A stretch of DNA of 64,000 bases from Dehalococcoidia bacterium. Lineage in GTDB: Bacteria; Chloroflexota; Dehalococcoidia; Lucifugimonadales; UBA1127. The translations under genes were made by a program, and so were the position numbers. The notes below the pieces were generated by a model that worked only from the letters and a program-made list of their open reading frames with translations, ran no database searches and had not been told where the DNA came from. Within the stretch, counting starts at the first letter, position 1; every line of letters begins with the position of its first letter. Location: positions 2,214,814 through 2,278,813 of the forward strand of contig OZ252225.1 in NCBI GenBank assembly GCA_965249315.1, given 5' to 3'. Shown here piece after piece: positions 26,127 to 32,720 of the stretch.

Positions 26127-27200
26127 CTAGCGGGGGTCTTCCCGCTTGTGGGCCTTGGTCAGGGTGCGGGCGCGCCCGTTCTCCAGAACGACGATGTCCT
26201 CGATGCGGACGCCACCCCAGCCGGGGATGTATATGCCGGGCTCGATGGTGAAGACTGCGCCGTCCAGGAGGGTGTTCCCCGCCCGAGGGCCGACGCGTGG
26301 GTCTTCGTGGACGGCGAGGCCGATGCCGTGGCCGAGGCTGTGGCCGAACTTGTCGCCGTGGCCGGCCTTCTCGATGATGCTGCGAGCGAGGCCGTCCGCC
26401 TGCTCGCCGGTCATCTGTGCTTCGACGGTGGCGGAGGCGGCCATCTGTGCGCCGAGGACCGTGTCGTAGACGGTGCGGAAGGTCTCATCGGGCCGGCCGA
26501 TGCAGACGGTGCGGGTGATGTCGCTGCAGTAGCCCTGGTACTTTGCGCCGAAGTCCATGACGACAGGCTGGCCCTCGAGGATGGGGGTGTCGTCGGCGCG
26601 GTGGTGGGCCATAGCGCCGTTGGGCCCTGCGGCGACAATGATGTCGAAGGCGAGGGCCTCTGCGCCGCCCTCGCGCATGGCCATCTCCAAACGCCAGGCG
26701 ACGGACTGCTCCGTGTCGCCGACCTCGATGGTGGGGGCGACCTCCTCGAAGGCGCGGTCGGAGATTTCGACGGCGCGGGTGATGAGGGCGAGCTCGTCAA
26801 GATCCTTGATGGCCCGCTGAGGCTCGACGAGCTCGGTGGTGGCGGTGAGCTCGACGCCGTTACCGGCGTCCTTCAGGGACTTCACGAGGGCGGCGTGCCC
26901 AGCGACGGTCATGTGTGCGCTCTCGAAGCCGAGCTTGCGCATACCCAACTCCTTCGCCAGGGGCGGGAGCCACCCGGCGGCAGCGATTCGCACGACGCGG
27001 AAGTCGGGGGCCTGGTTCGCCGCCTGCTCGGTGTAGCGGAAGTCGGTGGCCAGGACGGCGTCGGCCTGGGTGACGAGGAGGTTGCCGGCGGAGCCGGTGA
27101 AGCCGGAGAGGTAGCGTCGGTTTTCGGGCGCGGTTATCAGCATGCCGTCCAGCGCCTGCTCCTGGAGGACGGCTCGCAGGGCGTCAAGGCGTGCGCTCAT
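26127..27200 (-). CDS. pepP: Xaa-Pro aminopeptidase (M24B)
   Basis: Creatinase-like N-domain plus M24 metal ligands (VMDFGAKYQGYCSDITRT, HSLGHGIGLAVHE, FTIEPGIY, VRIEDIV). Confidence 0.9.
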   Translation of the reverse strand: MSARLDALRAVLQEQALDGMLITAPENRRYLSGFTGSAGNLLVTQADAVLATDFRYTEQAANQAPDFRVVRIAAAGWLPPLAKELGMRKLGFESAHMTVAGHAALVKSLKDAGNGVELTATTELVEPQRAIKDLDELALITRAVEISDRAFEEVAPTIEVGDTEQSVAWRLEMAMREGGAEALAFDIIVAAGPNGAMAHHRADDTPILEGQPVVMDFGAKYQGYCSDITRTVCIGRPDETFRTVYDTVLGAQMAASATVEAQMTGEQADGLARSIIEKAGHGDKFGHSLGHGIGLAVHEDPRVGPRAGNTLLDGAVFTIEPGIYIPGWGGVRIEDIVVLENGRARTLTKAHKREDPR

Positions 27201-27658
27201 GCGCTTCCCCCTTCGTCGTCACGTCGGGCTGCCAGGTACTCGAGGGCGTAGAGGTAGCTGCGCCAGCCCATTCCGGCGACCTGGCCGACGGCGATGGGGG
27301 CGATGACGGAGCGGGACCGCCAGGACTCCCGACCGGCGATGTTGGAGAGGTGGACCTCCACAACGGGAAGGCGGGTGTCCGCGAGGGCGTCCCGGAGGGA
27401 GAGGCCGTAGGAGGTGAGTGCGCCGGGGTTGATGATGACGCCCGCGGCGTCTGCGCTGCGCTCCTGAAGGCAGTCTATGAGTGCGCCCTCACTGTTGGAC
27501 TGGAAGCAGTGGACCTCCAGGCCGAGGTCAGCGGCGCGCCGGCGGAGGCGATCCTCGATCTCGGCGAGGGTGACGGTGCCGTAGTGGGCGGGGTCCCTCT
27601 GGCCGAGCCGGTTGAGGTTGGGACCGTTGATGACGAGGATGCGGGCGCTATCTGCCAT
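27197..27658 (-). CDS. aroQ: 3-dehydroquinate dehydratase, type II
   Basis: ILVINGPNLNRLGQRDPAHYG, FQSNSEGALID, IINPGALT and EVHLSNI are canonical type II DHQase motifs. Confidence 0.95.
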   Translation of the reverse strand: MADSARILVINGPNLNRLGQRDPAHYGTVTLAEIEDRLRRRAADLGLEVHCFQSNSEGALIDCLQERSADAAGVIINPGALTSYGLSLRDALADTRLPVVEVHLSNIAGRESWRSRSVIAPIAVGQVAGMGWRSYLYALEYLAARRDDEGGSA

Positions 27659-27699: not shown

Positions 27700-28560
27700 C
27701 ACTGCGTGACAGCAAGGTCACTGCGTGACGGCAAAGGCAGGGCAGGCCCTGCACCCACACCTTGCGGCAGCAGGGCTACGGCGGGGGTTGGGTTTGAATT
27801 GAGCTGAATGGTGTGCGCGCGATTTTCCGGCGGCCCGTGCCTGAGGAAACGCGGCGCAGCTTGGGTTTGAGGCGCGATGGACAAGTCGACAAAGGGAAAC
27901 AAGGCGTATCTGCCAGGCACGGGCCGGACGGGGGGCCGAGGGCCCCGCTGGGGGGTGTCGGAAAAGTCGACAAAGGGGGACAAGTCGTATCTGCGGGTCG
28001 CGGCGTCGTAGGGGGGCCGACGGCGACGCGGGGGGATCGCCGCAAACCGACAAAGGGAAACAAGGCAGGGCAAGGCGGGGGAGGTGTGGGCCCTTCGACA
28101 AGCTCAGGGTGAGCGGGAGGCGCGTGCGGGTGGGCATGGGGGTAGGGTAGGGGATGGGGGGGCGAGGGGATAGGGGGAGGTGGCACAGCACCAGGCAGGG
28201 CAGGCCCTGCACCCTCAGGCGGCCAGGCAGGGCACGCCCTGCACCCACAGGCGGCCAGCCGCGCAAGCTTGGGGAGGTGGGTTGCGCTGGGGGGTTGGGC
28301 CTGCGGAGGGGCGATGGAGGGTTGCGGTCGTTGGGGGGGCATAAGGTTGCCCCGCTCCGCCCCTCGCCCCACCGTCGCTTTTCCCGGCGGCGGTGCCGCC
28401 CTAGCATGAGCCCGCCCTGGGATTTTCTTGGGGCGCCCCCCGGAGCCCTGCGCTGGGGACCTTCCCCGCCCCTGGGTCCCGGCTCGGAGGCCGGAATGAC
28501 GGGTAGTAGGTGAGAGGGCTTCCCTGAGAGAGGGGGCGGTGACCAACTCCGCGAGTGCCC
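27700..28560. repeat. Large intergenic mosaic repeat block including an approximately 81-bp tandem array
   Basis: Tandem units start at 27885, 27966 and 28048 (gtcgacaaaggg[ag]aacaag[gt]cgtatctgc...). Also present: ggcagggcaggccctgcaccc modules at about 27736 and 28195, cccttcgacaagctcagggtgagcgg at 28091-28116, and a ccgcccctgggtcccggctcggaggccggaatgacg module near 28455. Confidence 0.85.
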
Positions 28561-28595
28561 TGATGACCAGTTACACCGGAGGTTGGGCGAATACC

Positions 28596-28624
28596 TTGAT
28601 ACTGTGAGGGTTAGAAGCTAGCAT
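28596..28624 (+). promoter_or_regulatory. Candidate promoter of the two-gene islet cassette (TTGATA-17 nt-TAGCAT)
   Basis: -35 at 28596-28601, 17-nt spacer, -10 at 28619-28624. It would give a 5' UTR of about 150 nt before the start at 28784/28787. Confidence 0.4.
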
Positions 28625-28783
28625 TGGTATCGCGACATGTCAGCGAGGCAAGGGCATGCTGGCAACAGCCGGACCTAGTTACGATGGCAACCTATGTGGT
28701 CGGCACCTGGCTCCTCGCTCTTATTGAAAATCGCTACAGATTACCCGAGGCTGCAGGCCAATTGATCGAGCGGAGGTGTTACT

Positions 28784-29506
28784 GTGATGAGGGATACGGA
28801 CCAGTTGGTCATCAAAGCAGTTGAGAATCACTATCAGGAAGAAGATTCTCCTTACTACTTGGCCGAACTTGGCAAGCTCTTCCGCGAGAAGGACATTGAC
28901 ATACCAGAGGGAGTCCGGTTTAAGGATTATCTAAGGAGTCGCTTTCACGGGAGTCTTGTTATCGTACAAGACGACCATACTCCGGCAAGAATAGCAGTTG
29001 CGACCCTCGACAAAGAAGCGAGCGTTCGTCAACAGCTCTCTGGTCAGCTCCCGCCCGTGCCCGGTGATTCTGGATTAGACCACATGCGTTTTCCCTTTTC
29101 CCTTATTGCTGCCTTTTGCAAGATTCCACTACCAAACACGCAAGTGTACTTCCGAATTACAAGACCTTTCCGATACGTTACCTTTATGGACGCACCCGAT
29201 GACAACAACTACGTGGCTATCGACGATAAATTTCGCCCCCCAAAATTGGCTGGGAAGTCAGTGCACGGATTATCCGATTCTGACAAAGGGCTGCTTTACA
29301 AGTGCATTGAGGAATGGGCGGAAGCAAACTCGGTCGATCTTCGACAGCTGTACTATGATCGCGCTGCTCTGCCAGCAGTAGCGAGAGCACAGTCAGGAAC
29401 AAGACGCAATGCGCTCCAGCGGTTGATCGACGCTCAAGACCCAGACCTGAAGGGGCGAATCAAGATTCCAGGGGATATCGCAAGCGTGCTCATGGATGTC
29501 GCATAG
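28784..29506 (+). CDS. Hypothetical protein A of islet cassette; N-terminal region resembles an OST-HTH/LOTUS-like winged helix
   Basis: 240-aa ORF with GGAGG upstream and a GTG-ATG start at 28784/28787. The composition is non-repetitive and AT-richer. YYLAELGKLFREKDIDIPEGVRFKDYLRSRF..LVIVQD resembles the OST-HTH pattern (resemblance only). I recognise no catalytic motif. Confidence 0.7.
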   Translation: MMRDTDQLVIKAVENHYQEEDSPYYLAELGKLFREKDIDIPEGVRFKDYLRSRFHGSLVIVQDDHTPARIAVATLDKEASVRQQLSGQLPPVPGDSGLDHMRFPFSLIAAFCKIPLPNTQVYFRITRPFRYVTFMDAPDDNNYVAIDDKFRPPKLAGKSVHGLSDSDKGLLYKCIEEWAEANSVDLRQLYYDRAALPAVARAQSGTRRNALQRLIDAQDPDLKGRIKIPGDIASVLMDVA

Positions 29507-30488
29507 GCGAATGCCTGGCAAGCTAGCCCGTCATTTGAGGAGATCGGAACACCAACAGCGGGATAACTTAGTCGTCCTTACCGGCCTTCCTCGAGATACT
29601 CTGAAGTGGACGATGCGTAGGCTCCATGGAGACACCTCCAGAAGGCCGGCAAGATATGTTGGCGCCCCCTCGACTCGGAGTCGCTCGCGTAACCTCTACA
29701 GCAAGGCCAGCATAGCGGAAACGTTGACGCTAATCGAGCGTGAGTGTCAACGCTATACTCCGCACCGAATTATGGTGCTCTATGTTCCGTCTGCGGACTC
29801 AGCAAATCTAGTTGAGGCCCTTGGATTTGTTTGCTTTCTTGCACCCTTGTGCCCAGGAACAAGCGACGATGGAGCTTTGGCGGCGCATTGGAGACATACA
29901 GTCTCTGAAGTGACGAGCGTAGTGTACGAGACTTTAAGTCGCGCACTGAAGACTACAAATGCCCTAAAGGCAGAGATTACTGACAGGAGAATCAGCCCCT
30001 TCACACTGCCAGCGCGTAATTTCTACTATCCCCACAGTCGTTCCACGATTGGTCTCGCCTATCAGGCATTCATCGCAAACGGATTTGATACGCAGCATCT
30101 AAAGAGTAAGTTGGAGCCGTCCAGGTTTACAAGGGGCCAGCTTCCACAAGGAGCATTCAAAGGCCAGCAGTACGCAGACTCTTTCTTTCAAGATCTTCGT
30201 GAGAGAGTATTCCCTCCTGATCTTCATCATGCGAGGTCAAGGCCTTTGAAGGAGGTTACCGGCCCCACTCTTTCTTTGGAATTACAACAGCGATTTCGCT
30301 TTGGAGTGATGGTCCGGGATGGTAACTTGCACTACGACATGCAGTATGAGCTGCCAAGGAGATTGGCGGATGAACCAATGTACTGTGCGATGGAAGGGGA
30401 GGTATCCGTAACTGCTTCACATGCGAATGTTGGTGTTAATGATGTCGTATGGGTTCCCAGTGGCAGGAAAGACCGCAGAAAAAAGTAG
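29496..30488 (+). CDS. Hypothetical protein B of islet cassette (Arg-rich N-terminus, basic C-tail), no recognisable domain
   Basis: 330-aa ORF. Its ATG at 29496 overlaps the gene A stop by 11 nt (ATGTCGCATAG), and an alternative ATG lies at 29511. It shares the AT-richer composition. I can assign no family motif. Confidence 0.7.
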   Translation: MSHRRMPGKLARHLRRSEHQQRDNLVVLTGLPRDTLKWTMRRLHGDTSRRPARYVGAPSTRSRSRNLYSKASIAETLTLIERECQRYTPHRIMVLYVPSADSANLVEALGFVCFLAPLCPGTSDDGALAAHWRHTVSEVTSVVYETLSRALKTTNALKAEITDRRISPFTLPARNFYYPHSRSTIGLAYQAFIANGFDTQHLKSKLEPSRFTRGQLPQGAFKGQQYADSFFQDLRERVFPPDLHHARSRPLKEVTGPTLSLELQQRFRFGVMVRDGNLHYDMQYELPRRLADEPMYCAMEGEVSVTASHANVGVNDVVWVPSGRKDRRKK

Positions 30489-30510
30489 GCGCAACAAAGA
30501 ATGTTGCGCC
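30479..30510 (-). terminator. Intrinsic terminator (GGCGCAAC-7 nt-GTTGCGCC + T6 on minus strand); abuts gene B stop codon
   Basis: 8-bp perfect stem at 30488-30495/30503-30510. The minus strand continues tacTTTTTTct (T-tract 30479-30484). On the plus strand the hairpin starts at the last base of gene B's TAG (30486-30488) but lacks a U-tract. Confidence 0.7.
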
Positions 30511-30715
30511 AATAAAGATCCATGTAGCCAACACAAATGGTGAGAGGTGTGTCACTCAGGCGGCTTGCCTACGAACCGTAGGCAACATCAACCGTCGGCC
30601 ACTTTTCGTTTGACCTAGGCTGAAGGTCCCACCGGATCGCCGTACACTCTTGGCGCCCCTCCCGGCAAATCAGATCCACCAGGTCGGCGCGAGTGGCCTC
30701 TTCGCTCTATCGGCT
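30480..30715 (-). ncRNA. Candidate small RNA of about 235 nt, convergent with the islet cassette
   Basis: Bounded by the near-consensus promoter at 30722-30750 and the intrinsic terminator at 30479-30510. It contains an 8-bp hairpin TTGCCTAC-ggttc-GTAGGCAA. The only ORFs I found reading it (10 and 36 codons) lack an SD. Confidence 0.45.
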
Positions 30716-30721
30716 AAGGGC

Positions 30722-30750
30722 ATTATACAGTTGATGTATGCGATTTTCAA
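30722..30750 (-). promoter_or_regulatory. Near-consensus sigma70 promoter on minus strand (TTGAAA-17 nt-TATAAT)
   Basis: The reverse complement of 30721-30760 reads agggcaccgtTTGAAAatcgcatacatcaactgTATAATg. The predicted TSS is near A30715. Confidence 0.65.
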
Positions 30751-30805
30751 ACGGTGCCCTACCCACAACTACGGGATGTCAAACACTTCAAGCTACTACC
30801 TCAGG

Positions 30806-30834
30806 TTGACAGGGGGGGTGGGTGTGGCTATGCT
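30806..30834 (+). promoter_or_regulatory. Promoter of the aroG leader (TTGACA-17 nt-TATGCT)
   Basis: A perfect -35 TTGACA at 30806-30811, a 17-nt spacer, and a -10 TATGCT at 30829-30834. Confidence 0.6.
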
Positions 30835-30843
30835 GGCGGGGTT

Positions 30844-30942
30844 GTGACGAAGGTGGAGAGGGTCCGGCAGTACTATTACTCCTACTTTAGCGGCGCGCGG
30901 TGGCGCGTCGGTGAGGTCTTGACGCTCCACGTCCACACGTAG
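30844..30942 (+). CDS. Candidate aromatic-rich leader peptide (..VRQYYYSYFSGARW..) of DAHP synthase attenuator
   Basis: GTG at 30844 (or 30853) to TAG at 30940-30942. Codons TAC TAT TAC TCC TAC TTT span 30871-30888. This is the only frame with a start codon inside the predicted transcript. Confidence 0.5.
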   Translation: MTKVERVRQYYYSYFSGARWRVGEVLTLHVHT

Positions 30943-30968
30943 ACCAGCCAGACAAGAGGAACGCTCGA

Positions 30969-30998
30969 GACCCCGACCGGCAGCGGTTGGGGTCTTTT
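30969..30998 (+). terminator. Attenuator terminator in the aroG leader
   Basis: 11-bp stem (30969-30979 with 30984-30994, one G-U), GCAG tetraloop, then TTTT at 30995-30998, 19 nt before the aroG ATG. The alternative antiterminator pairs 30907-30919 with 30968-30977. Confidence 0.65.
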
Positions 30999-31016
30999 CA
31001 TGAAAGGGAGGTCAGC

Positions 31017-32084
31017 ATGGTCCAGATTGAGAAGTCGGCGATACACAACGTCCGGGTGGAGAGCATCACGCGGCTCGATCCGCCGTCGGAGTACTGGCGG
31101 CGGTACCCGCTGCCGGAGTCGATGCGGGAGCAGGTGGCGGGGCATCGTCGCCAGATCGAGGCGATCCTGAGCGGGGTCGACACGCGGATGCTGATGATCG
31201 TGGGGCCGTGCTCGATCCACGACACGGAGGTGGGGCTGGACTACGCCCGTCGGCTGTCGTCGCTGGCGTCGGAGGTGTCGGACCGGGTGCTAGTGCTGAT
31301 GCGGGTGTACTTCGAGAAGCCGCGGACGACGGTGGGGTGGAAGGGGCTGATCAACGATCCGAACCTGAATGGGACGTACGACGTGCACGAGGGCATGGCG
31401 CGGGCGCGCCAGTTCCTGCTGGAGGTGTGCGGGCAGGGGCTGCCGACGGCGACGGAGTTCCTGGAGCCGTTCACGCCGCAGTACCTGGGGGATGTGATCT
31501 CGTGGGGGGCGATAGGGGCGAGGACGACGGAGAGCCAGCCGCACCGGCTGATGGCGAGCGGGCTGAGCATGCCGATAGGCTTCAAGAACGGCACGGGCGG
31601 GAGCATCGATATTGCGGTGGACGGGATCGTGGCGGCGAGGTCGGAGCACGTTTTTCTGGGCATCGACGACGACGGGTACGCGTCGGTGGTGAAGACGAAG
31701 GGGAACCCTGGGGCGCACCTGGTGCTTCGAGGCGGGAAGCAGGGGCCGAACTACGACGCGGCGTCGGTGGCGTCGGCGCAAGGGCTGCTGGAGGCGCGGG
31801 GGCTGGCGCCGCACGTGGTGGTGGACTGCTCGCATGCGAACTCGAACAAGGACCACAGGCAGCAGGCATCGGTGTTCAAGGCGCTGGTGGAGCAGCGGGC
31901 GGGGAATCCGGGCGTGGTGGGGCTGATGCTGGAGAGCAACATCCGCGAGGGGAGCCAGTCGCTGGGGGACCCGTCGGCGCTGGAGTACGGGGTGTCGATC
32001 ACGGATGCGTGCGTGGGGTGGGAGGAGACGGAGGAGCTGGTGCGATGGGCGCACGCGCGGTTGGGGGCGGCCAGCCGCGCATAA
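31017..32084 (+). CDS. aroG: 3-deoxy-7-phosphoheptulonate (DAHP) synthase, class I
   Basis: LMIVGPCSIHD, YFEKPRTTVGWKGL, GARTTESQ.HR and VDCSHANS are class I-alpha DAHPS motifs. An SD (aaagggagg) lies 5 nt before the ATG at 31017. Confidence 0.95.
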   Translation: MVQIEKSAIHNVRVESITRLDPPSEYWRRYPLPESMREQVAGHRRQIEAILSGVDTRMLMIVGPCSIHDTEVGLDYARRLSSLASEVSDRVLVLMRVYFEKPRTTVGWKGLINDPNLNGTYDVHEGMARARQFLLEVCGQGLPTATEFLEPFTPQYLGDVISWGAIGARTTESQPHRLMASGLSMPIGFKNGTGGSIDIAVDGIVAARSEHVFLGIDDDGYASVVKTKGNPGAHLVLRGGKQGPNYDAASVASAQGLLEARGLAPHVVVDCSHANSNKDHRQQASVFKALVEQRAGNPGVVGLMLESNIREGSQSLGDPSALEYGVSITDACVGWEETEELVRWAHARLGAASRA

Positions 32085-32102: not shown

Positions 32103-32414
32103 ATGACCTACTCCGCCACCAAGTCGGACAAGGACCCCTGCGTGTACATCCTCGCCAGCAAGAGAAACGGAACGCTGTACACCGGCGTTACCTCGAACCT
32201 TGTACAGCGTGTGTGGCAGCACCGGAACGCATTCGTAGCAGGGTTTACCCGTCAGTATGGAGTCCAGCGCCTCGTTTGGTATGAGATGCATCCGACTATG
32301 GAGAGCGCGATTACGCGAGAAAAACAGCTCAAGGGATGGCGTCGGAGATGGAAGGTCCGGCTGGTGGAGGAGATGAACCGCGACTGGGCGGACTTGTACC
32401 CGCAGCTGGGCTGA
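32103..32414 (+). CDS. Small stand-alone GIY-YIG nuclease-family protein (UPF0213-like)
   Basis: 103 aa: CVYILASKRNGTLYTGVTSNLVQRVWQH...REKQLKGW. Confidence 0.85.
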   Translation: MTYSATKSDKDPCVYILASKRNGTLYTGVTSNLVQRVWQHRNAFVAGFTRQYGVQRLVWYEMHPTMESAITREKQLKGWRRRWKVRLVEEMNRDWADLYPQLG

Positions 32415-32720
32415 GTGCCTTGGTCGCCTCCCCGCCCCTGGGTTCCGGCCTCCGCCGGAACGACGAGGTAAAGGGGCCCTCATCCCAACCCTCTCCCAGA
32501 GGGATGTGGGGTGCTTGGTTGGGCCCACCCCTCGATTGTTGTTTTGTGACTGGGGGCGCAGCCCCCAGACCCTGGCGCCCTCACCCGCCGCTGCGCGTCG
32601 GCCTCTCCCCCAGGAGAGGCGGGCGGCATCGCCGCGTAAGCTCTCCCCGCCGCGCCACGCCGCCGACGCTGATGCGTCATCCTCACCCCTGCCCTCTCCG
32701 AGAAGGGGGAGCGGGCGCTG
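32415..32720. repeat. Intergenic mosaic repeat block
   Basis: Contains modules ccgcccctgggttccggcctccgccggaacgacg, tcatcccaaccctctcccagaggg, gggcccaccc...tgactgggggcgcagccccca, cggcctctcccccaggagaggcgg and cacccctgccctctcc..gggggag. Confidence 0.8.

Follow-up and report, generated by a model that had tools for sequence, protein, structure and literature searches.

A probable leader-peptide attenuator of transcription upstream of the only DAHP synthase gene detected in a Dehalococcoidia genome

In Corynebacterium glutamicum, the DAHP synthase gene aroF is preceded by aroR, which encodes a leader peptide containing Phe-Tyr-Phe (Neshat et al. 2014, as reported in PMC11802643; first predicted in PMC4046766). 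According to PMC11802643, read-through into aroF increases when ribosomes stall, and limitation for Phe is effective, whereas limitation for Tyr is not. The leader peptide of ilvB in the same species is described as being made without a ribosome-binding site (Morbach 2000, given as reference 42 in PMC4046766). In Escherichia coli, the entry enzyme of the common pathway is under the control of the TyrR and TrpR repressors (PMC11802643). A literature search for attenuators of this kind in Chloroflexota found no published account.

We analyzed a stretch of 64,000 nucleotides (the window) from a Dehalococcoidia bacterium (assembly GCA_965249315.1, contig OZ252225.1, positions 2,214,814 to 2,278,813); all positions are those of the window unless stated otherwise. 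The genome comprises 2.28 Mb and has a G+C content of 66%. An earlier reading of the letters of this stretch, made by a model without database searches (the sequence-only reading), had proposed that an aromatic leader peptide attenuates a class-I DAHP synthase gene. The coordinates it gave for the promoter, the ORF, the helices, the terminator, and the Shine-Dalgarno sequence were all correct. We consider it very probable that a ribosome-mediated, leader-peptide-dependent transcription attenuator controls the only DAHP synthase of this genome. The conservation of the layout in relatives, the codon pattern, the covariation of the terminator, and the co-variation of antiterminator and terminator all support this interpretation. 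The features of the locus are listed in Table 1.

Table 1. Features of the leader, the DAHP synthase gene, and two neighboring genes, in window coordinates.
Feature	Coordinates	Strand	Basis
aroQ (type II dehydroquinase), beyond the low-G+C islet	27197-27658	-	
-35 hexamer TTGACA	30806..30811	+	promoter scan
-10 hexamer TATGCT, spacer 17 nt	30829..30834	+	promoter scan
Leader peptide ORF, GTG start, 32 codons + TAG, encodes VTKVERVRQYYYSYFSGARWRVGEVLTLHVHT	30844..30942	+	translation
Codon run TAC TAT TAC TCC TAC TTT (Y Y Y S Y F), codons 10-15	30871..30888	+	sequence
Segment 1, CGGCGCGC, 5' arm of the anti-antiterminator 1:2	30891..30898	+	folding
Single Trp codon TGG, in the loop of hairpin 1:2	30901..30903	+	sequence; conserved in L002
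Segment 2, partner of segment 1 (30903-10) or of segment 3 (30907-11 + 30915-22)	30903..30922	+	folding
Segment 3, terminator 5' arm (30967-79), antiterminator partner (30965-77)	30965..30979	+	folding
Segment 4, terminator 3' arm (30984-96) + U-tract TTTT (30995-98)	30984..30998	+	folding
Shine-Dalgarno GGGAGG, 5 nt before the ATG, outside the terminator hairpin	31006..31011	+	sequence
Class-I (I-alpha) DAHP synthase, aroG/aroF/aroH type, 355 aa	31017..32084	+	TIGR00034
GIY-YIG gene, downstream of aroG	32103-32414		

The protein encoded downstream of the leader matched the NCBIfam model TIGR00034 (aroFGH) with 462 bits, the cut-off being 173. In the genome, which is estimated to be 92% complete, PF00793 had this single match and PF01474 had none; the gene is the only DAHP synthase detected there. 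Upstream lies an islet of low G+C content (about 28560-30760, 49-57% G+C vs 66% in the genome), which holds two unassigned ORFs as well as a minus-strand RNA that runs convergently from a promoter to a terminator. Beyond the islet, an M24 peptidase gene and efp are found near aroQ, likewise on the minus strand. Downstream, the GIY-YIG gene is followed by a repeat block and a convergent FAD oxidoreductase gene. Because of this gene neighborhood, the attenuator would serve aroG alone, or aroG together with the small GIY-YIG gene.

The promoter recognized in the sequence-only reading, TTGACA-17-TATGCT at 30806-30834, is present and matches the consensus at 10 of 12 positions. A scan of 1 kb returned three promoter-like sites, compared to 0.4 expected from shuffled sequences. 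Transcription is predicted to start at about 30841-30844. At the equivalent -35 place, the loci of relatives carry TTGACA in 25 of the 26 tabulated cases and TTGACT in one, the sites having been located through a search for TTGAC. The same -10 hexamer with the same spacing occurs in L002, a relative from the same genus. The distance from the -10 hexamer to the start codon is 9 nt in the window and 5-11 nt in 22 of 24 Chloroflexota loci; a start codon right behind the -10 box is the rule in this leader family. The leader ORF is without a Shine-Dalgarno sequence, and the 9-nt gap after the -10 hexamer leaves no room for one. As judged from the spacing of these elements, translation probably takes place on an mRNA that is leaderless or nearly so. 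On leaderless mRNA, a GTG start is less favorable than ATG in some bacteria. The earlier reading had put the start about 10 nt past the -10 hexamer, which is nearly exact, but had called this unusual for attenuators; that remark does not stand, given the similar arrangement in 22 of the 24 Chloroflexota loci and the precedent in Corynebacterium.

Within the ORF, a second in-frame GTG occurs at 30853, and the TAG occupies 30940-42. The ORF reads as claimed, with four Tyr, one Phe, and one Trp codon, and Tyr or Phe make up five of the six codons (four Tyr, one Phe) of the run at 30871-30888. The gene behind the leader encodes a DAHP synthase, and a cluster of codons for products of the controlled pathway, in a short ORF of the 5' leader, is a hallmark of leader-peptide attenuators. 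The other two frames of the same run do encode Thr- and Leu-rich strings, as had been noted; neither has a start codon after the promoter, and the GTG that opens the Leu frame (30822) falls within the promoter spacer. Aromatic residues account for 5.4% of the codons in long ORFs of this genome. At least five aromatic codons per six were found, besides the leader, in only one short ORF among the 21,371 counted (10-60 codons, on either strand of the 2.28-Mb genome); the leader itself lies outside this count, its open frame reaching upstream to GTG 30754 and thus exceeding 60 codons. The other aromatic-dense ORF (genome positions 1364747-1364803) overlaps with the beginning of an Obg-like GTPase gene and lacks a terminator, and we attribute it to chance. 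Genome-wide, 29 short ORFs start 4-12 nt past a promoter of the form TTGACN-16/18-TANNNT. This leader is the only aromatic-rich one, and no further attenuator-like candidates were found among the 29 with this strict promoter pattern.

The three mutually exclusive helices proposed earlier are present in the leader RNA. Hairpin 1:2 pairs 30891-98 with 30903-10 over 8 bp (-14.8 kcal/mol); in its extended form (30884-30917) it reaches -23.4 kcal/mol. The antiterminator 2:3 pairs 30907-11 and 30915-22 with 30965-77 (13 bp with a 3-nt bulge, duplex energy -22.2 kcal/mol), and the terminator 3:4 pairs 30967-79 with 30984-96 (13 bp, -24.6 kcal/mol). The minimum-energy fold of 30835-31020 holds hairpin 1:2 and the 13-bp terminator, and its stability corresponds to z = -2.85 relative to shuffled sequences, 1 of 200 shuffles being as good. 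As in other attenuators, the intrinsic terminator lies between the leader ORF and the structural gene. Its U-tract is short (4 U, followed by C, vs 5-8 U in relatives), and termination may therefore be leaky. From the U-tract to the ATG of the DAHP synthase gene the distance is 18 nt. The end of the hairpin and the Shine-Dalgarno sequence are 9 nt apart, which argues for an attenuator of transcription in which translation is the sensor. The element had been called a translational attenuator, and this label fits the ribosome as sensor but not the output.

The antiterminator shares the 5' arm of the terminator, so that the two exclude each other, as is characteristic of attenuators. In a fold that stops short of segment 4 and masks the stretch under the ribosome, the complete 5' arm of the terminator (13 nucleotides) is paired with 30904-30920. 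This extent of pairing was reached by 1% of the shuffled controls, in which a mean of 7.3 of the 13 arm nucleotides were paired. Segment 1 begins only 3 nt past the Phe codon, and a ribosome stalled in the Tyr/Phe run would therefore cover it. The geometry, deduced from the sequence and a commonly assumed footprint size, thus has the 5' strand of the anti-antiterminator inside the footprint of a ribosome at the regulatory codons, which is a further property of known attenuators.

By analogy with trpL, pheL, and aroR, we infer that the ORF is translated, that ribosomes stall in it, and that the choice between 2:3 and 3:4 is a kinetic one. In the proposed mechanism, transcription would begin a few bases before the GTG at 30844, or at the GTG itself. 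When Tyr-tRNA or Phe-tRNA is scarce, the ribosome would stall in Y-Y-Y-S-Y-F (30871-30888) and cover segment 1 (30891-98). Segment 2 (30903-22) would then be free to pair with segment 3 (30965-79) once the latter has been made; formation of 2:3 would block the terminator 3:4, and RNA polymerase would continue into aroG. With an ample supply of aromatic aminoacyl-tRNAs, the ribosome would reach the UAG at 30940, and hairpin 1:2 would re-form behind it. Segment 3 would then pair with segment 4, and transcription would end at the U-tract (30995-98). By the same analogy, the amino acids sensed are most likely Tyr and Phe. A regulatory role of Trp is uncertain because stalling at the Trp codon (30901-30903) would place the 5' half of segment 2 under the ribosome as well.

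The sequence-only reading had assumed that segment 2 becomes masked once a ribosome reaches the stop codon. This part of the model has to be abandoned: with UAG 30940 in the A site, the ribosome covers about 30925-30954, whereas segment 2 occupies 30903-30922, and the stop codon lies 18 nt past segment 2. Termination under replete conditions must therefore depend on hairpin 1:2 forming again once the ribosome has passed. In the genus from which 13 species were sampled, the stop codon directly follows segment 2.

For an equilibrium analysis, the leader was folded with a ribosome footprint over each of the aromatic codons, over the Trp codon, or over the stop codon. With segment 4 present, the terminator wins in every masked state. 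Without segment 4, segment 3 finds an upstream partner in every masked state, one of the alternative partners being a G-rich stretch toward the 5' end of the ORF (30852-68). These calculations gave no separation of the two regulatory states; the switch would therefore have to be kinetic, as in classical systems. Folding of the leader, suggested earlier as a check, confirmed the helices and the unusual stability (z = -2.85), but did not set the alternative states apart at equilibrium.

The sequence elements and their complementarities can be followed in relatives, where both their conservation and their co-variation are observed. Of 40 relatives whose whole genomes were searched, 26 were found to have the enzyme; the named loci with 54-64% protein identity come from Dehalococcoidia or Chloroflexota assemblies. 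We compared the 400-450 nt upstream of each orthologue, and 23 loci had enough upstream sequence to be assessed. The same layout was found in 19 of these 23 relatives of the same order (Dehalococcoidia-like Chloroflexota): a TTGACA hexamer, a -10 hexamer, a start codon 5-11 nt further on, a short ORF in which aromatic codons cluster, and a GC-rich hairpin followed by 5-8 U. Regulatory codons and layout are thus kept in orthologous leaders, as expected for an attenuator. The four exceptions are L004, L011, L012, and L020. In L004, L012, and L020, the upstream flank looks coding, and by resemblance it may encode a putative AroH-type chorismate mutase. Three Desulfobacterota-type loci (L080, L081, and L091) likewise have leaders rich in aromatic codons in front of this enzyme.

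The orthologous leader peptide in L002 reads VTYVERGWRYYYGYFSGARWRAGEVLSLHVPA, and an example from the genus with 13 sampled species reads MSITLSYLYGYFFTGTYSGRGGAV; further relatives encode MGDLRLDNWFLPYTYFSSITAAGEVLVQRAK, MNRSIAYLSYYFEFTYKARTGRVAV, MRAVGAVGYRSFYFTGLAAAGYVQVRASR, and MRKDGSQEYFWLYLYTSSRRAGRRQGVCS. Eight species of one genus retain Tyr or Phe at positions 7, 9, 11, 12, 13, and 17, with synonymous TAT/TAC exchanges and one swap of Phe to Tyr. Positions 3, 8, 18, and 22 carry four to six different residues each in the same species. A fixed aromatic identity amid drifting codons indicates selection on the identity of the regulatory codons and argues against an element that acts purely at the RNA level. 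The conservation of aromatic codons in orthologous upstream regions, a comparison that had been suggested for this locus, is therefore borne out both by the 19 of 23 layouts and by the codon table of the eight species. A hairpin equivalent to 1:2 follows the aromatic run in nearly all relatives. The bases after the run, TTTA[CG]CGGC, are nearly invariant across lineages, which is explained by their being segment 1 of the 1:2 hairpin.

For the analysis of covariation, 19 leaders were aligned with MAFFT and folded with RNAalifold. The consensus recovered the terminator alone. In the terminator helix, 6 of 13 pairs are changed on both sides and 79% of the cells are paired; none of 500 shuffles reached its covariation score, and controls in which the helix was slid along the alignment scored lower. 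In the registers of the window, 1:2 and 2:3 had only 55-64% of the cells paired on this alignment, and no significant covariation score was found for either helix in these registers. The 2:3 register had 64% of the cells paired, compared to 28-53% when slid. The column-wise counts for the antiterminator are weak because the registers differ between lineages, and in the GC-rich RNA of the relatives most single-sequence shuffle tests of the antiterminator were individually non-significant.

Because these single-sequence and column tests are weak, the pairing of segment 2 with cognate and non-cognate terminators was tested instead. Segment 2 of the window pairs with its own terminator arm at -23.3 kcal/mol, vs a mean of -15.6 for foreign arms, and its own arm is the best of 24. 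Among 13 lineage representatives, the mean of the cognate antiterminators beats that of permuted pairings (p = 0.0002). The same-genus relative L002 provides an example of such co-variation. Its segment 3 differs at the equivalents of 30974 (C to U) and 30975 (G to C), and its segment 4 compensates at the equivalent of 30988 (U to G). The altered segment 3 is perfectly complementary to CCGGUGAGG of segment 2; the substitutions thus keep the pairing of segment 3 with both segment 2 and segment 4. Compensatory changes, which the sequence-only reading had named as something to look for, are present in the terminator; for 2:3 they emerge from the cognate test but not in the alignment register.

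The short U-tract, 4 U and then C, together with the failure of equilibrium folds to separate the two states, could be taken to mean that the leader senses aromatic aminoacyl-tRNA and that its output is Rho access, mRNA stability, or a weak pause instead of intrinsic termination. We regard this as quite unlikely, since the terminators found at this position in relatives are canonical, with 5-8 U, the terminator stem covaries, a GC-rich stem of 13 bp with -24.6 kcal/mol is typical of intrinsic terminators, and the antiterminator overlaps exactly the terminator 5' arm. The near-invariance of TTTA[CG]CGGC at the nucleotide level would also suit an RNA that binds a ligand, a tRNA, or a protein (a riboswitch, a T-box, or a TRAP-like element), with the ORF as a by-product of conserved RNA such as UUUACCGGC. 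These invariant bases, however, are accounted for by segment 1 of 1:2. In an Rfam cmscan of 30300-31300 with E up to 10, only weak terminator-like matches were obtained, and no leader, T-box, or riboswitch family was found; in particular, Trp_leader (RF00513), Phe_leader (RF01859), P15 (RF00627), and T-box (RF00230) did not match. The TAT/TAC changes and Tyr/Phe swaps, with the frame, the start position, and the stop codon always kept, likewise speak for a translated leader, and we hold a binding RNA to be highly improbable.

Many chance helices arise in GC-rich sequence, as the mean of 7.3 of 13 in the shuffled controls illustrates, and one might ask whether a chance ORF happens to lie beside the ordinary terminator of an upstream transcript, with aroG having its own promoter. 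Nothing specific favors this arrangement, and we give it next to no credence: upstream lie the low-G+C islet and the convergent RNA gene, and no same-strand upstream gene ends here; the 18 nt between U-tract and ATG are too short for a promoter; the layout recurs in 19 of 23 relatives; and the aromatic run is nearly unique in the genome.

The leader-peptide attenuator might also be more elaborate than the mechanism set out above. Under an extended version, the entry enzyme would be governed solely by one leaderless, GUG-initiated leader that integrates the charging of Tyr-tRNA, Phe-tRNA, and possibly Trp-tRNA. The nearly invariant [Y/F]-F-[T/S]-G would act partly via the nascent peptide, through programmed slowing, in addition to the role of segment 1 in the RNA. 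The Trp codon in the loop of 1:2 would give rise to a distinct response, weaker or opposite. Taken jointly, these propositions strike us as unlikely; if they were true, the locus would represent a form of attenuation with several inputs, and one dependent on ribosomes that initiate directly at a start codon at the 5' end of the mRNA.

For the Dehalococcoidia-like Chloroflexota, most of which are uncultured, the leader-peptide attenuator adds a regulatory gene that had not been annotated and an RNA switch at the committed step of the aromatic amino-acid pathway. It also indicates that attenuation of DAHP synthase genes by leader peptides, which has been proven in Corynebacterium, is widespread. 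In this lineage, judging by the position of the start codons, attenuation seems to be linked with leaderless translation. As a mechanism, this is the classical leader-peptide attenuation of the textbooks, and the locus provides another well-documented instance of it without introducing a new principle.

The closest precedent is aroR-aroF of C. glutamicum. In both systems, a leader with aromatic codons precedes a DAHP synthase gene, and C. glutamicum belongs to a Gram-positive-type lineage in which leaders without ribosome-binding sites occur (ilvB). The likeness is functional only: aroR-aroF is found in Actinomycetota, the locus in the window in Chloroflexota, and the two leaders are probably independent inventions. 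The aroR peptide contains Phe-Tyr-Phe, whereas the leader in the window is dominated by Tyr (four Tyr and one Phe, with one Trp downstream). Moreover, aroF encodes one of two DAHP synthases in C. glutamicum, whereas the enzyme in the window is the only one found.

The trpL-trpEDCBA and pheL-pheA systems of E. coli share with the window the four-segment logic of 1:2, 2:3, and 3:4 and the location of the regulatory codons just upstream of segment 1. In contrast to these systems, the leader in the window has no Shine-Dalgarno sequence and starts 9 nt past the -10 hexamer, its stop codon lies 18 nt past segment 2 instead of at its edge, and the attenuator controls the entry enzyme of the common pathway. 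The ilvB leader of C. glutamicum differs in that branched-chain amino acids are sensed, in another operon and another phylum; its attenuator leader peptide is made without a ribosome-binding site, and the presumed leaderless start in the window therefore has a precedent.

The DAHP synthase gene aroG is transcribed divergently from aroQ, and a repeat block and a low-G+C islet now lie between the two genes; downstream of aroQ lie an M24 peptidase gene and efp. The islet directly precedes the aroG promoter and has a G+C content of 49-57%, compared with 66% for the genome. A Pfam search with its two ORFs returned no match for either. The islet also contains a minus-strand unit, for which a near-consensus promoter and a terminator are predicted from the sequence. 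On the other side of aroG, 19 nt past its stop codon, begins a GIY-YIG domain gene that may share the aroG transcript.

Features flanking aroG and within its leader region (window positions)
Feature	Position	Strand	Remarks
aroQ, type II 3-dehydroquinate dehydratase	27197-27658	-	PF01220, 179 bits
Low-G+C islet	28560-30760		
Islet ORF	28784-29506		
Islet ORF	29496-30488		
Islet minus-strand unit	30479-30750	-	
Promoter of this unit	30750-30722	-	TTGAAA-17-TATAAT
Terminator of this unit	30510-30488	-	
Frame +3 ORF	30822-30890	+	GTG 30822 to TAG 30888-90
G-rich stretch	30852-30868		GGUGGAGAGGGUCCGGC
GIY-YIG domain gene, 103 aa	32103-32414	+	PF01541, 64 bits
Repeat block 3' of GIY-YIG gene	32415-32720		

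The aromatic run of the leader can also be read in frame +3, where it encodes a Leu-rich ending (...AVLLLLL*). This ORF is not expected on the transcript, because its sole start codon sits within the promoter spacer. Early in the leader ORF, a G-rich stretch is an alternative partner for segment 3, the 5' arm of the terminator, in truncated folds; in the full fold, it pairs with CUCCAC (30925-30930). The stretch could be an additional competing element or a mere GC-rich coincidence. Covariation is uninformative here, since the same-genus relative has an identical sequence.

The genome contains only one other short ORF with at least five aromatic codons in six (G000:C1:1364747-1364803, genome coordinates; MDFTCFPHPYSYYWYKHR). 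Its aromatic density is probably due to chance, because the ORF shares sequence with the beginning of an Obg-like GTPase gene, which it overlaps, and is not accompanied by a terminator.

At four DAHP synthase loci from relatives (L004, L009, L012, and L020), the 5' flank appears to hold the end of another gene, a putative AroH-type chorismate mutase gene. L009 retains a promoter, leader peptide, and terminator between this gene and the DAHP synthase gene, whereas a leader is absent from L004, L012, and L020.

Leader ORFs very rich in aromatic residues are also present outside the Chloroflexota, at the Desulfobacterota-type loci L080, L081, and L091 (peptides MRMAHIADKAYRYYYCYYYTCGLSAAP, MNTRKTGKFYFYYRYYFYTRLPVLR, and VGHFFAGGYFWFWYYFYTGLLPGVR), where they lie about 60-150 nt 5' of the DAHP synthase start. 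These leaders may not be leaderless, because 30-32 nt separate each ORF from the best promoter-like site upstream.
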